This document shows positions 1,289-40,833 of a stretch of 40,833 nucleotides of DNA, in pieces. The notes under the pieces are model-generated. The model was given only the letters and a program-made list of their open reading frames with translations. It was not told where the DNA came from and did no database searches. The first letter of the stretch is position 1, and every line of letters begins with the position of its first letter. The position numbers and the translations under genes were made by a program. The DNA comes from a virus (taxonomy: Duplodnaviria; Heunggongvirae; Uroviricota; Caudoviricetes): IMG/VR virus record IMGVR_UViG_2534682161_000025; one strand, written 5' to 3'.

Positions 1289-1771
1289 CTATCTGGTCAG
1301 GGTGTCGTATTGTTTTTCGCAGACTCTTCCGGCTTCGGCTGCCCGGTCAGCATACTCTGCCAGTTGTCTGTTTCTCTCGAGAGATTTGCTGAGCACGTCG
1401 GCAAGCAAAACTCCGGTGTCTGCGGCTGACGTCCCAGCGCCGACAATGGCGTTATACTGCCTGAGCTGCTCACGGATGGCAAAGAGTTGTTGCTGCAACC
1501 GGCCAGCGCGAGCGGCAGCATCAAGAGCATCATTGCGCGCCTGGTCGATCCTCTGCTGCGCTTCACGTTCATTGATCGATTTCTCCTGTTCGTAGTGCTG
1601 ACGAACTATCTCATCTTCAGCTTTGCGGTCTTCCTTCGCCTGCGCATACCCGGCATCGTACTGACGACTGCCGTGTACATTCCAGGAAACAATTCCCGAT
1701 ATGACCAGAACAGCAAGCATCACCACGATAAGCAACTGTTTCCAGTATGCTTTTGCGAATGCCCAGATCAT
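1289..1771 (-). CDS. Rz-like i-spanin
   Basis: N-terminal TM helix then charged coiled-coil; start overlaps endolysin stop (ATGA); contains an embedded lipoprotein ORF in another frame. Confidence 0.7.
   Translation of the reverse strand: MIWAFAKAYWKQLLIVVMLAVLVISGIVSWNVHGSRQYDAGYAQAKEDRKAEDEIVRQHYEQEKSINEREAQQRIDQARNDALDAAARAGRLQQQLFAIREQLRQYNAIVGAGTSAADTGVLLADVLSKSLERNRQLAEYADRAAEAGRVCEKQYDTLTR
1297..1572 (-). CDS. Rz1-like o-spanin lipoprotein embedded within Rz
   Basis: Out-of-frame ORF inside Rz; ATG with AGGAGA SD 9 nt upstream; basic n-region, hydrophobic core, lipobox LALAGC; Pro-rich mature part. Confidence 0.6.
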   Translation of the reverse strand: MNVKRSRGSTRRAMMLLMLPLALAGCSNNSLPSVSSSGSITPLSALGRQPQTPEFCLPTCSANLSRETDNWQSMLTGQPKPEESAKNNTTP

Positions 1772-2397
1772 ACCGCCAGCACCTTACTGGCAGTGATGTA
1801 CCGCGCGCGCCGGTCGTCGATGCCGTTCCGGCCACCATTGATAATCAGAGTTACACGTGCAATATCGCCGGTATACTTCATGCATCCTTTGCTGGCGAAG
1901 AACCACGCCGCGCTACGAGCCGCATATTCGTCCTGCGCCAACAGTTCAGGATTCTCCAGCAGGTCCACTTTCAGGACGTTTCCGCAATCACGATAGTTAT
2001 TCAAACCGGTAATCTGGATAAGTCCGCGGCCACGGTAATTCCAGCCATCACCAGGGGCATTGTTCCCCATGCGTTTGCTGTACGCCAGATTGGCGATCGC
2101 GCGCTGGCGCTCCAGCGGTAACGATGGCTCGCCAGCACGGCGGCCCAGCGCGTTGGCCTGACCCTGAGTAAGTCGCCCGGCGCGGACGAATCCTGCGAGC
2201 CCTGCAACGCTGTAGTTGAAGTTTTCCTGCAGCCGGGTGAAACCAGTAGACTCATGCCCCACCTGCGCGATAAACATCGCCTGGTGCAGCGGTTGCTCGA
2301 TGCCAAACTCTTTCATGGCTGCGGTGATATGCAGGTACCAGCGCGCGGCCAGCACCTCACTGATGCCAGCTGCACGCTGGAATTGGTTAATGTCCAT
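1768..2397 (-). CDS. Endolysin, glycoside hydrolase family 19 (chitinase-like lysozyme)
   Basis: GH19-type motifs FIAQVGHESTGF and NYRGRGLIQITGLNNY; sits between holin and spanin genes. Confidence 0.85.
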   Translation of the reverse strand: MDINQFQRAAGISEVLAARWYLHITAAMKEFGIEQPLHQAMFIAQVGHESTGFTRLQENFNYSVAGLAGFVRAGRLTQGQANALGRRAGEPSLPLERQRAIANLAYSKRMGNNAPGDGWNYRGRGLIQITGLNNYRDCGNVLKVDLLENPELLAQDEYAARSAAWFFASKGCMKYTGDIARVTLIINGGRNGIDDRRARYITASKVLAV

Positions 2398-2680
2398 GCT
2401 GGGACCTCGTTATCTTGAAAATTTGCACCACGTTCCCTTTTGTCTTGATGAGCGCAGCCAGGAACACGGCTTTGATGATGACTTCTGACCAGTCGGCGCT
2501 GACGTAGTACCCGTAGAAAGTCCGGATAGGTACGCTGGCTGCCACGACGATCAGCAGATAGGCGAGCCACCCACCCCACCAGCGGTGACGTGACCCGTCA
2601 CGGCGGAACAGAAGCACTCGGATTGCAATGCCACCGCAGATAGCGGCGTTAAGGATGAGAAGCAGATCAGGACTGGTCAT
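2387..2680 (-). CDS. Holin/antiholin-like small membrane protein
   Basis: 97 aa, two hydrophobic segments; ATG with GGGGAGA SD; overlaps neighbours in the lysis cassette. Confidence 0.55.
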   Translation of the reverse strand: MTSPDLLLILNAAICGGIAIRVLLFRRDGSRHRWWGGWLAYLLIVVAASVPIRTFYGYYVSADWSEVIIKAVFLAALIKTKGNVVQIFKITRSQHGH

Positions 2681-3071
2681 CGTCTTTTCTCCCCGGGATC
2701 ATGTCGCGCGGATTTTCAGAACGGTGATACAGCCAGATGCCAATGCGAACAGCGACGATTGCAGACACGAATGCCCCGGCGGAATACACAATGCCCTTCT
2801 CAAAAGAGTCCTGCGTAATCGTTGGTATCAGGCTGGCAAAGCCAATCAGAATGGAAGCTGTCGCTTTATAGAAGAGAACGCCGCAGAGGAAGCTTAGGAG
2901 CGCCAGGAGCAACCTACGCTTTATCGGATACTCAACCGCTGAGGTAACAAAAATTACCGCACCAGCAAGAGCACCTAAAGCCACCTCAGGCGGTATACCA
3001 ACGAACACGGACGCCAGTGCAGTCAGGCTTAACCCCTGATTTACTGACTCTGTTGTCAGCACATGCGCCAT
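2667..3071 (-). CDS. Holin
   Basis: About 134 aa from ATG at 3071 (GGTGG SD); three hydrophobic helices and a charged C-terminus; first gene of the lysis cassette. Confidence 0.6.
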   Translation of the reverse strand: MAHVLTTESVNQGLSLTALASVFVGIPPEVALGALAGAVIFVTSAVEYPIKRRLLLALLSFLCGVLFYKATASILIGFASLIPTITQDSFEKGIVYSAGAFVSAIVAVRIGIWLYHRSENPRDMIPGRKDDDQS

Positions 3072-3176
3072 AGTGACCACCGTTTATTGTGCATAAAGAA
3101 CCCCCTTAGTTGGTGAGTTCATCATACACAATAAACCATATGTGGATTAAATTTGATCGGATAACTCTTAACGAAA

Positions 3177-38745: not shown

Positions 38746-39388
38746 GAAATACACACTAATCTATGCAGATCCACCCTTGGTATACCGGGACAAAGCCGCA
38801 GATGGTAATCGCGGTGCCGGTTTTAAATATCCGGTTATGAGTGTGCTGGATATCTGCCGCCTTCCTGTGTGGGATTTGGCCGATGAAAACTGTCTGTTGG
38901 CCATGTGGTGGGTGCCAACACAACCACTCGAAGCACTAAAAGTTGTTGAAGCCTGGGGATTCCGTCTGATGACGATGAAGGGCTTCACGTGGATAAAATG
39001 TGGTAGTCGACAACCAGATAAACTTGTTATGGGTATGGGACACATGACTCGCGCCAATAGTGAAGATTGCCTGTTTGCGGTAAAGGGAAAACTACCTCCG
39101 CGCATTAATGCAGGGATCGTTCAGTCATTTACCGCACCGCGGCTTGAGCACTCAAGAAAACCAGATGTCGTTCGTGAAAAACTTGTGCAATTGTTAGGCG
39201 ATGTTTCTCGCATTGAACTATTCGCCCGCCAGTCGTCTCATGGCTTCGATGTTTGGGGTAATCAGTGCGAAGACCCGGCAGTGCAACTACACCCTGGATA
39301 CGCGTTGGATATTGGCGGATTAACAAATGCATTCAGCAATTCTCCGCTGTCACCAACAGACAACCAGGGGCGGGAGCGTGCTGCATGA
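38738..39388 (+). CDS. MT-A70-family DNA adenine methyltransferase
   Basis: 216 aa from ATG at 38738; motif IYADPPL near the N-terminus (DPPW-type catalytic motif). Confidence 0.7.
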   Translation: MTKKYTLIYADPPLVYRDKAADGNRGAGFKYPVMSVLDICRLPVWDLADENCLLAMWWVPTQPLEALKVVEAWGFRLMTMKGFTWIKCGSRQPDKLVMGMGHMTRANSEDCLFAVKGKLPPRINAGIVQSFTAPRLEHSRKPDVVREKLVQLLGDVSRIELFARQSSHGFDVWGNQCEDPAVQLHPGYALDIGGLTNAFSNSPLSPTDNQGRERAA

Positions 39389-39579
39389 ACAGGGCATCAC
39401 CAGCAGATTTAAGAAAATGCCTTGAAACTGCAAACATGCTTGCACACAGCGGGATCAGGTTTGTTCCAATTCCCGCCGTCACTGATGCTGAATTTGCAAC
39501 ACTGTCAGCAATATTCGAAAACAAAATTGAATCACTGGCAGCAGAAGCAGAGATGGAAGAAAATCAGCAGAACTATTAA
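39385..39579 (+). CDS. Hypothetical small protein (64 aa)
   Basis: ATG overlaps methyltransferase stop (ATGA); last gene before the integrase. Confidence 0.4.
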   Translation: MNRASPADLRKCLETANMLAHSGIRFVPIPAVTDAEFATLSAIFENKIESLAAEAEMEENQQNY

Positions 39580-39582
39580 ACG

Positions 39583-40833
39583 TTATTCCCCCGCCATCCA
39601 CTTCTCAAACTTCGACGGGGAGAACGGAATCAGATCCGTATGCTCCCCGTTAATCCAGGAATCAATCATATCGGCCCACTGCTGCAACATGTAGGCGCGC
39701 TGTCTGGCGTATTCCGCTTTGTTATATACGGCGCGCACACCTTTCTGCTCATGTGCCAGAGCCTTTTCAATCCAGTCTGAAGGATAACCAGCCTCATGCA
39801 ACAACGTACTGGCTGTACGGCGCATATCGTGTACGGTGAAGCCCTGAATATGCTCACCATCTTCATTTATTATTTTCACCGTTCTGTCGATCAGAGAGTT
39901 CAGCGCGGCATTAGATAATGGCTTCCGGAAATTGTAACGACCAGGAACCAGATATTCACTTCCACCAGCGCACATCTGCAACCCAACCAATATATCCTGT
40001 GCCTGTTTAGGCAGGTAAATAACGTGCGCCCGGCTTCCCTTCATGCGGTCTGAAGGAATTGTCCATGTCCATTTTTTAAAATCTATTTCATCCCACGTTG
40101 CATTGGTGAATTCGCCTTTACGAACCATAGTGATAAGCACCAGCTTTAAAGCCATTTTCATAGTGCCCATAGCACCAATGGCATCCAGCGTGCGGAAGAA
40201 CAGGCCAATTTCTTCTGGTGTCAGTGTTCGCTCTCGTGGTTTAAATATGGCGATAGACGAAGGTTTAATGTCAGCCGCAGGATTAAACAAACCATGACCA
40301 CGGTCATTGGCGTGACGGTATACGCTGCTGATGATCTCCCTGGCCTGTACTGCTGTTGCCCGACCACCGCGTTCGACAATCCGGTCACACAAATCACGAA
40401 CCATCGATGTGGTAATTTCAGCCATCATTTTGTTGCCAAGAACCGGAAGTATGTCACGGTCGATCACCGCCTGCTTCATTGCGCGGGTACTGTCAGCCAG
40501 GATGACGTGTTTCATATAACTGTCGGTATGTACCGCAAACGTCTCGGCACCACGAATCTTTTTGATACCGTCACGTTTAGCCGCAGCCGGCGACTGGCCT
40601 GCTTTAAGCAGCTTCTTTGCAGCAATCAGTTCTTCTCGCGCTTCTGCCAGGCTGATACCGTCACGCCCATACTGCCCGATTACCAGTGTTTCGCGGCGAC
40701 CGTTGATACGGTAGTCATAGCGAAACGAGACCGTGCCTGACGTAAGCACAGCTACATACAGCCCGTCACGATCGGAGACCTTGTACAGTTTGTCCTGCGG
40801 CTTGAGGTTTTTTAATTTTGTATCGGTAAGCAC
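39583..40833 (-). CDS. int: Tyrosine integrase (P4-type); 5-prime end at or just beyond the window edge
   Basis: 416 aa in window; N-terminal arm-binding-like region and C-terminal catalytic region with conserved R...H..R...Y pattern (HDMRRT...LAHE); the ORF runs to position 40833. Confidence 0.85.
   Translation of the reverse strand: MLTDTKLKNLKPQDKLYKVSDRDGLYVAVLTSGTVSFRYDYRINGRRETLVIGQYGRDGISLAEAREELIAAKKLLKAGQSPAAAKRDGIKKIRGAETFAVHTDSYMKHVILADSTRAMKQAVIDRDILPVLGNKMMAEITTSMVRDLCDRIVERGGRATAVQAREIISSVYRHANDRGHGLFNPAADIKPSSIAIFKPRERTLTPEEIGLFFRTLDAIGAMGTMKMALKLVLITMVRKGEFTNATWDEIDFKKWTWTIPSDRMKGSRAHVIYLPKQAQDILVGLQMCAGGSEYLVPGRYNFRKPLSNAALNSLIDRTVKIINEDGEHIQGFTVHDMRRTASTLLHEAGYPSDWIEKALAHEQKGVRAVYNKAEYARQRAYMLQQWADMIDSWINGEHTDLIPFSPSKFEKWMAGE

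Follow-up and report, generated by a model that had tools for sequence, protein, structure and literature searches.

Which phage lies behind IMG/VR record IMGVR_UViG_2534682161_000025, a stretch of 40,833 nt (one strand, 5' to 3'; hereafter the window) in which a virion block resembling that of T7 adjoins replication and immunity genes resembling those of lambda? An earlier note had described it as a mosaic prophage, and the features listed there are all present where the note placed them. [quoted passage not shown] The idea that this mosaic is something new does not survive. The seeming union of a T7 head and tail with lambda replication is how phages of this named genus are normally built, and it is found at guaA in about one in eleven complete Escherichia coli (E. 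coli) genomes; an 8-kb block running from nozzle to portal occurs at 95-99% identity in 505 of the 5,426 complete E. coli genomes searched (~9%).

Identity, boundaries, and completeness of the prophage

The earlier note had likened the element to converting phages of the epsilon15/phiV10 type, and whole-genome comparison with epsilon15, phiV10, and Uetakevirus by megablast and blastn bears this out, placing it with phiV10. Among 50,697 phage records searched by megablast, the nearest phages are phiV10, the O157 typing phages 9/10, PAS61, phiv142-3, and HEMP4, all at 96-98% nucleotide identity and all either members of Uetakevirus or similar to it; epsilon15 and SPN1S/SPC32H stand at ~77%. Without the insertion sequence IS2 the prophage measures 38.3 kb, of which 83.5% can be aligned to phiV10 at 96.4%; the product of identity and aligned fraction is 0.80. 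A single unbroken match of 19.5 kb at 98.1% identity (window 9165-28694) runs from the gene for an 824-amino-acid (aa) virion protein to the small terminase subunit, and further blocks at 92-98% cover replication, immunity, recombination, and integrase genes (blastn). Gene by gene, nearly all have a phiV10 orthologue at 89-100% aa identity (tblastn).

The product of 0.80 lies above the identity of at least about 70% across the genome to a recognised member that delimits Uetakevirus. Gene content and order also agree with the annotated phiV10 and epsilon15 records over the series that we compared: small and large terminase subunits (TerS-TerL), portal, capsid, adaptor-nozzle, internal proteins, tailspike, conversion gene, lysis, attP-int, early-left, rep/cro, and replication. 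The same product falls short of the identity of at least 95% over full genome length that marks the species Uetakevirus phiV10; the element lies outside that species, and its tailspike receptor domain, acyltransferase, and several early genes have been replaced. No sequence feature contradicting the assignment to Uetakevirus was found.

The boundaries agree with the genus as well. The chromosomal E. coli genes yfgH and yfgI occupy positions 1-1071 (Pfam glycine-zipper and DUF5384, with names from RefSeq), and the prophage extends from the attachment (att) core to the last base of the window (1162-40833). Its left edge had been put at 1289; the prophage in fact starts about 127 bp further left, at the 17-bp att core AATCATTCCCACTCAAT (1162-1178). 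This core is also present at the guaA end of E. coli MFDS1019527 and in the attP of phiV10, and its reverse complement is the published attP/attB core of vB_EcoP_ZX5 (PMC9782041), a phage that integrates at the guaA 3' end (PMC9782041). Members of the genus use the 17-bp core attgagtgggaatgatt to integrate at the 3' end of guaA, and the element agrees, with one copy at 1162-1178 and the other at the guaA stop of MFDS1019527. At the opposite edge lies a P4-type tyrosine integrase of 416 aa (39583-40833, minus strand; strands are given as + or - below), identified by the Pfam families Arm-DNA-bind_3, Phage_int_M, and Phage_integrase and by the RefSeq annotation of MFDS1019527, and sharing 99% identity with phiV10 Int. 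Its GTG start codon closes the window, so the second att copy (guaA 3' end, about 190 bp further) falls outside it.

MFDS1019527, a cattle isolate from Korea, carries an annotated prophage between guaA and yfgI that is 99.9-100% identical to the element. Given this sibling, the identity to the phiV10 group, and the 505 of 5,426 genomes, the element is common and already described. Its identity and layout are already known, and only the receptor/acyltransferase cassette and the IS2 polymorphism treated below are mildly new; a correct annotation is the main value of the present analysis, with little importance beyond.

Could the element instead be a decaying, non-inducible cryptic prophage? An IS2 copy sits within it, the Bro-N antirepressor gene of phiV10 and ZX5 is absent, and in the sibling of MFDS1019527 an IS2 disrupts the 824-aa virion gene, all of which would fit decay. 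In the window, however, IS2 affects the accessory acyltransferase only. The open reading frames (ORFs) for packaging, head, tail, ejection, lysis, replication, recombination, immunity, and integrase are full length and 83-100% identical to those of viable phiV10, except one holin (62%) and RecT (74%), and the SPC32H-type Ant, the predicted LexA box, and the att core are intact. We therefore consider a cryptic prophage unlikely.

Several observations nonetheless weigh against the favored reading, an essentially complete temperate Uetakevirus prophage. The IS2 copy indicates that the element has been resident long enough to gain an insertion, and the IS2 of the sibling copy in MFDS1019527 lies in an essential-looking virion gene. 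The Bro-N 'anti-repressor' gene (phiV10 p23, also in ZX5) is missing at 9167-9210, and the inducibility of the window prophage is something that we infer. Within the virion block, no catalytic domain was found in the 231-aa protein that RefSeq and PHROGs label a 'protease' or 'peptidase' (Pfam to E 10, NCBIfam), only coiled-coil-like noise, and the 600-aa and 824-aa proteins are putative internal proteins by position and PHROG labels.

The virion block and its kinship with T7

That the element encodes a podovirus is supported by similarity of its structural proteins to podovirus proteins at the level of profile, PDB, and fold matches. A short-tailed virion is predicted from the adaptor, nozzle, and tailspike genes, from a gene set free of tape-measure and tail-tube genes, and from the electron microscopy of relatives (PMC9782041); for the close relative vB_EcoP_ZX5, both short-tailed morphology and spontaneous induction are documented (PMC9782041).

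The connector had been described as T7 gp8-like, and the 559-aa portal (23438-25117, -) indeed belongs to PF12236, the T7 gp8 family Head-tail_con (E 3.5e-187), and matches PDB 8ck0. A 68-aa protein of the head module (25132-25338, -) lies on one side of it and a 98-aa Bbp19-like protein (23145-23441, -; Pfam Phage_Bbp19) on the other. The 231-aa protein annotated as a 'protease' (22447-23142, -) occupies the scaffold position and by that position is more likely a scaffold. The 328-aa major capsid protein (21446-22432, -) belongs to PF20911 (GP7), with PDB matches to 3j4u (E 9.5e-129), 8cjz (1.2e-87), and 3j40 (2e-85). Beyond it are a 145-aa Bbp16 cement protein (20957-21394, -; Pfam Bbp16), a 111-aa capsid accessory protein of the head module (20611-20946, -), and a 107-aa gp10-like staple (20237-20560, -; Pfam Gp10-like). 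We also observed that the capsid protein is nearer to that of Bordetella phage BPP-1 (3j4u) than to epsilon15 gp7 (3j40; 43% identity), so that the head genes of the phiV10 branch differ markedly from those of the phage that gave the genus its name.

The tail begins with a 201-aa adaptor (19632-20237, -), which matches the 'Connector Protein' PDB 8ck1_E (E 1.6e-26), and an 823-aa nozzle (17161-19632, -), which matches the 'Tail Nozzle' 8ck1_A (E 2.8e-217). The 8ck1 structure is the tail of phage Carin 1; weaker matches of nozzle and adaptor are to orf18 and orf17 of 9efk, the portal-tail complex of phage LME-1. An AlphaFold (AF2) model of the adaptor, built from an alignment of 36 homologues, has a mean predicted local distance difference test (pLDDT) score of 87.1. 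In Foldseek searches this model resembles the T7 gp11 adaptor 7box_M (E 2.8e-6, template-modeling score 0.57-0.59) at 12-14% sequence identity, as well as the adaptors of PhiM1, P-SCSP1u, KP32, Kp7, and other adaptor-nozzle podophages.

The internal or ejection block (9360-17161, -) falls in PHROG families of 'internal virion protein' and 'virion structural protein'. Its 154-aa product (16697-17161, -) has a sub-threshold match to Phage_T7_Gp13 (E 0.047), and its 181-aa product (16152-16697, -) matches PF24072 T7_gp14 above the curated cut-off (E 2.5e-7, 31.2 bits). Residues 249-398 of the 837-aa protein (13639-16152, -) resemble lytic transglycosylases and endolysins (PDB endolysin, Gp29; PHROG 'tail injection transglycosylase') and thereby recall the hydrolase domain of T7 gp16. 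For the 600-aa (11840-13642, -) and 824-aa (9360-11834, -) proteins, no annotated or solved relative was found by PDB sequence, Pfam to E 10, NCBIfam, or PADLOC searches. Matches of residues 19-133 of the 600-aa protein to cutinase/PETase-type alpha/beta-hydrolases are non-significant (E 0.09-0.7) and count as noise, and its best 120 listed homologues are all 99%-identical E. coli copies.

How far does this block mirror T7 genes 8 to 17, as the earlier note had it? Order and sizes are parallel, running from portal to fibre or spike and then to lysis. The window proteins measure 559, (98), 231, 328, (145, 111, 107), 201, 823, 154, 181, 837, 600, 824, and, further on, 751 aa, where those in parentheses have no T7 counterpart; T7 gp8 to gp17 measure 536, 307, 345, 196, 794, 138, 196, 747, 1318, and 553 aa. 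The portal and the 181-aa protein belong to the same families as in T7 (PF12236 and, for gp14, PF24072), and the adaptor has the gp11 fold. What did not stand is similarity between individual proteins: comparison of 18 virion and packaging proteins with 14 T7 proteins (gp6.7-gp19) by BLASTP and phmmer gave nothing significant, nor did tblastn of all 47 window proteins against the T7 genome. No phage RNA polymerase or T7-type replication gene was found among the gene-sized ORFs scanned by Pfam and PHROGs or matched to phiV10.

The differences from T7 are correspondingly large. T7 has an RNA polymerase, a DNA polymerase, and a primase-helicase, all three lacking in the window prophage, which is also temperate, unlike T7. 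Its capsid is of the BPP-1/epsilon15 type with cement and staple proteins, and it has three large internal proteins where T7 has gp15 and gp16. Neither hallmark of Autographiviridae, a single-subunit RNA polymerase with T7-type replication or sequence-similar gp8-gp17, is present. "T7-like" therefore holds at the level of profile and fold, as an ancient structural kinship common to many podophages and not as a recent exchange of modules. For epsilon15, a review of ejection proteins likewise describes syntenic but very divergent counterparts of gp14-16 and a T7-like core stack (PMC8954989).

That a T7-like lytic phage recently recombined with a lambdoid one to give a truly new mosaic is exceedingly improbable: the element's portal, gp14, and adaptor-fold links to T7, its links to lambda (P at 31%, Ea22, DUF1382), and early segments shared at 90-95% DNA identity with many Stx and lambdoid phages would suit such an origin, but no T7 protein is matched significantly by BLASTP, phmmer, or tblastn, and the arrangement is kept in phiV10, epsilon15, SPC32H, and Tyrion, with the virion block in 505 of 5,426 complete E. 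coli genomes. Because the arrangement is conserved across Uetakevirus phages and these E. coli genomes, the combination carried by this Uetakevirus prophage is ancient and defines the genus.

Immunity, replication, and lysis

The immunity region had been read as a lambda-like divergent switch. Its geometry is of that kind: a 76-aa cro-like gene (33720-33950, -; PHROG transcriptional repressor) and the repressor gene rep (34105-34689, +) diverge from a 154-bp gap (33951-34104) that holds three operators (33987-34001, 34018-34032, and 34035-34049). The mechanism is of another type. Residues 1-190 of Rep match the SPC32H repressor (PDB 5d50_A, E 4e-42), and the protein has two helix-turn-helix (HTH) domains (HTH_3 and a YdaS-like HTH) and no S24 autocleavage domain detectable by Pfam. 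Downstream of rep, a terminator is followed by two further operators (34747-34761 and 34809-34823) that flank a promoter-like site (34781-34809, TTGACA-17-AATTAT).

The partner of Rep is encoded between the tailspike and the virion genes. The 85-aa product of ant (8910-9167, +) matches the 'Anti-repressor protein' PDB 5d50_E (E 6.7e-48). In front of the gene are an operator-like Rep site (8819-8833) and the LexA box CTGTATAAACATACAG (taCTGTATAAACATACAGtt) at 8873-8888, a perfect CTGT-N8-ACAG, also kept in phiV10 and epsilon15, that stops 21 bp short of the ant start codon. The window thus has what characterizes an SPC32H-type Rep/Ant system, a Rep homologue free of an autocleavage domain and a small Ant homologue behind a predicted LexA box. 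Next to ant, at 9167-9210, the Bro-N gene and a small ORF that are present in phiV10 (p22-p23), ZX5, and many E. coli relatives are missing, and a terminator-like hairpin is left.

Across the window, the operator TTACC-N5-GGTAA occurs at 12 sites with at most one mismatch, all of them in control gaps between genes (starts at 3177, 8819, 25429, 28576, 28594, 31618, 31680, 33650, 33987, 34035, 34747, and 34809). With up to two mismatches allowed there are 37 matches, compared with 10.8 +/- 3.3 in shuffled sequences; the counts elsewhere are 14 in phiV10, 15 in epsilon15, and 1 in T7. In its RefSeq record, epsilon15 has sites of the same sequence, annotated there as bound by a 'repressor'. We had considered the dispersed palindromes as a possible new finding and rejected this, as they are already annotated in that record.

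From the distribution of these sites, a single repressor appears to hold down the early, late, packaging, and lysis units directly, as is already known for the genus. In a lysogen, Rep would bind TTACC-N5-GGTAA at the three operators of the rep/cro gap and the two around the early-left promoter, and further binding would take place behind the replication genes and ahead of the units for terminase, head, tailspike/ant, and lysis/acyltransferase. Because Rep has no autocleavage domain, induction probably runs via Ant: once DNA damage had cleared LexA, Ant would be produced and would dislodge Rep from the DNA, as with the homologous SPC32H proteins. SOS-dependent antirepressor induction has been reported in this phage group, where it is attributed to Kim and Ryu 2013 (PMC7380047). 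Since Rep is 100% identical to the phiV10 repressor, the lysogen should be immune to phiV10-based reporter phages.

Set against lambda, the region is alike in its divergent repressor and cro genes with three operators and in a second operator pair at the early-left promoter. Lambda uses a CI-type S24 autoprotease repressor, whereas Rep has its two HTH domains only. In the window, unlike lambda, the predicted route of induction is an antirepressor under LexA control whose gene is 25 kb distant, and the late, lysis, and packaging units have operators too. Pfam and PHROG scans of the ORFs found no N, Q, tape-measure, or tail-tube families, and the element has neither the S24 CI-type repressor nor the N/Q antitermination and long non-contractile tail of lambdoid phages.

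Replication had been described as using lambda O/P-like proteins, a view that stood for P and, for O, in the layout of the gene. The 261-aa helicase loader (31732-32517, -) is a member of the lambda P family (PF06992, E 1.5e-56) with 31% identity to lambda P. The initiator (32514-33329, -) has an N-terminal HTH_36 domain (PF13730) and a C-terminal DnaT domain (PF17948), unlike Phage_rep_O of lambda, and lies outside the lambda O family (PF04492); PHROG places it as a "replication initiation protein", with weaker "O-like" matches on its N-terminal half. Seven iterons with the palindromic unit TCCCGTTTTTGGGA (32923-33098; spacings of 24, 24, 24, 18, 18, and 45 bp) sit within the initiator gene, between the stretches that code for its two domains, and the array is kept in phiV10. 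Lambda has four iterons inside O followed by the P-family loader, and the window initiator likewise carries its own iterons. The initiator would bind the seven iterons within its own gene, and the P-family loader would recruit DnaB. We also noted that the array has one 24-bp unit more than that of MFDS1019527, which adds 8 codons to the initiator; this copy-number polymorphism lies in the presumed origin.

The lysis genes had been described as displaced to the far end. They do lie after the tailspike and adjoin the left junction, but this position is canonical for the genus and matches the T7 order as well. The cassette comprises Rz (1289-1771, -; Pfam DUF2514) with embedded Rz1 (1297-1572, -), a GH19 endolysin (1768-2397, -; Pfam Glyco_hydro_19), a holin (2387-2680, -), and a second holin or three-transmembrane protein (2667-3071, -), with Phage_holin_3_7 and Phage_holin_8 as the holin families that Pfam finds in it. 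The proteins are 62-96% identical to phiV10 p27-p30a. In phiV10 and epsilon15, as here, the cassette follows the tailspike and conversion gene and adjoins att, and T7 too places its holin and spanins after the fibre gene. The cassette stands at the end of the prophage because attP lies between the lysis genes and int.

Conversion cassette, accessory genes, and comparison with relatives

The 751-aa tailspike (6459-8714, -) joins a conserved N-terminal anchor (about residues 1-260) to a divergent beta-helix receptor-binding domain and would be specific for O antigen. Its N terminus falls in PHROG tail spike and fibre families, and the protein also has a weak pectate-lyase-like match. Alignment to phiV10 is confined to the N-terminal 43%, and over the C-terminal 493 aa no phage protein comes closer than 54%. 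Uetakevirus prophages are well known to swap their tailspikes (PMC10408124).

The serotype-conversion slot (3228-6423, +) holds an AT3-SGNH O-antigen acyltransferase gene in two parts, an N fragment with the Acyl_transf_3 domain (3228-4093) and a C fragment with the SGNH domain (5425-6423). The protein is intact in MFDS1019527 (619 aa), where its identity to any phage protein is at most 31% and no relative of solved structure was found by sequence. Neither the acyltransferase nor the tailspike receptor domain is present in phiV10 or epsilon15, and the two coincide with segments of low guanine-cytosine content (0.39-0.42) on either side of IS2 within 3000-8000.

The IS2 element of 1331 bp (4094-5424, -; transposase ORFs 4968-5378 and 4105-5010, Pfam rve/HTH_21) does not differ from the annotated IS2 of MFDS1019527 (100% identity). 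It splits the acyltransferase gene after codon 288, and the 5-bp target duplication CTGGT (4089-4093 and 5425-5429) points to a clean transposition. In MFDS1019527, IS2 (locus L002 34697-36027) instead splits the 824-aa virion gene, with the duplication CGTAC. These are two independent, recent IS2 transpositions into sibling copies of the prophage. Neither the 5,426 complete E. coli genomes nor the species representatives of GTDB contain the junction between acyltransferase and IS2. With the conversion gene knocked out by IS2, the lysogen would probably no longer modify its O antigen, and loss of O-antigen acetylation is predicted for this strain.

A tentative reading, less likely than not, pairs the tailspike receptor domain with the acyltransferase as a matched receptor/receptor-modification cassette whose O antigen lies outside the range of sequenced phage isolates; under this reading the IS2 polymorphism may reflect ongoing, possibly selected inactivation of conversion or of virion production in a cattle-associated lineage. 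Both proteins differ from those of all sequenced phage isolates and could extend catalogues of O-antigen-specific receptor-binding proteins.

The large (26508-27983, -; PHROG, E 1.8e-52) and small (27980-28654, -; PF03592 Terminase_2) terminase subunits are 99-100% aa-identical to those of phiV10, and two operators lie at 28576-28608. An exact operator found by the operator scan (25429-25443) lies in a divergent control gap. On the strand opposite the late genes are a tRNA-Arg(TCT) gene (25766-25842, +; ARAGORN, Rfam tRNA at 72 bits) and a gene of the Gp49/Sf6 gene-66 family (26046-26417, +; PF13876). An 83-aa ORF annotated as phiV10 p04 (25772-26023, -) overlaps the tRNA gene in antisense and is probably not a real gene. 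The accessory early-right genes (28695-31614, -), which encode a 112-aa regulator, DUF551, Ead/Ea22-like, and DUF1064 proteins and small ORFs (Pfam, PHROG), form the most mosaic segment, with patchy alignment to phiV10.

The early-left operon (34843-39579, +) encodes, by Pfam, a 53-aa ORF, a 344-aa ORF, a 99-aa ORF, a RecE-like nuclease, RecT, an AlpA/Xis-like regulator, PerC, an MT-A70 methyltransferase, and DUF1382; PADLOC labels one member MTase_II. The 344-aa ORF (35001-36035, +) directly follows the early-left promoter and is missing from phiV10 and epsilon15. No function for it emerges from Pfam, PADLOC, or NCBIfam, and it falls in PHROG 1376 (unknown function); it has a charged low-complexity stretch and a moron-like position. 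The RecE-like nuclease and RecT (36339-38038, +) are encoded by two overlapping genes where the phiV10 record annotates one RecE-RecT fusion, and RecT is only 74% identical to the phiV10 sequence.

How does the prophage compare with its relatives? Gene order is collinear with phiV10 (NC_007804), phiv142-3, vB_EcoP_PAS61, vB_EcoP_ZX5, and the O157 typing phages 9/10. With phiV10 itself, the block from terminase to the 824-aa virion gene is 98% nucleotide-identical; the Rep, cro-like, gp14-family, capsid, and TerS proteins are 100% identical; and the P4-type integrase, attP core, guaA target, operator motif, LexA-box/ant unit, and iteron-bearing initiator with P are the same. In the slot where the window has the unrelated 619-aa AT3-SGNH acyltransferase, phiV10 has the 338-aa product of oac (Oac). 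The tailspike receptor domains differ, and the lysis cassettes are 84% nucleotide-identical. The phiV10 genome has p22 and the Bro-N gene p23, which are absent from the window; the window has the extra 344-aa early gene and separate RecE and RecT.

The architecture is retained in the more distant epsilon15 and SPC32H, as are the operator sequence and the kinds of positions that it occupies. Identity to epsilon15 is ~77% at the nucleotide level over a third of the genome; at the protein level, the capsid, staple, and cement proteins and the 600-aa and 824-aa products share only 28-44%. Epsilon15 lacks a P gene, and its conversion set consists of an O-antigen polymerase plus inhibitors. Its lysis genes stand after the tailspike and conversion genes as in the window, and the solved Rep/Ant complex of SPC32H (5d50) is matched by both Rep and Ant.

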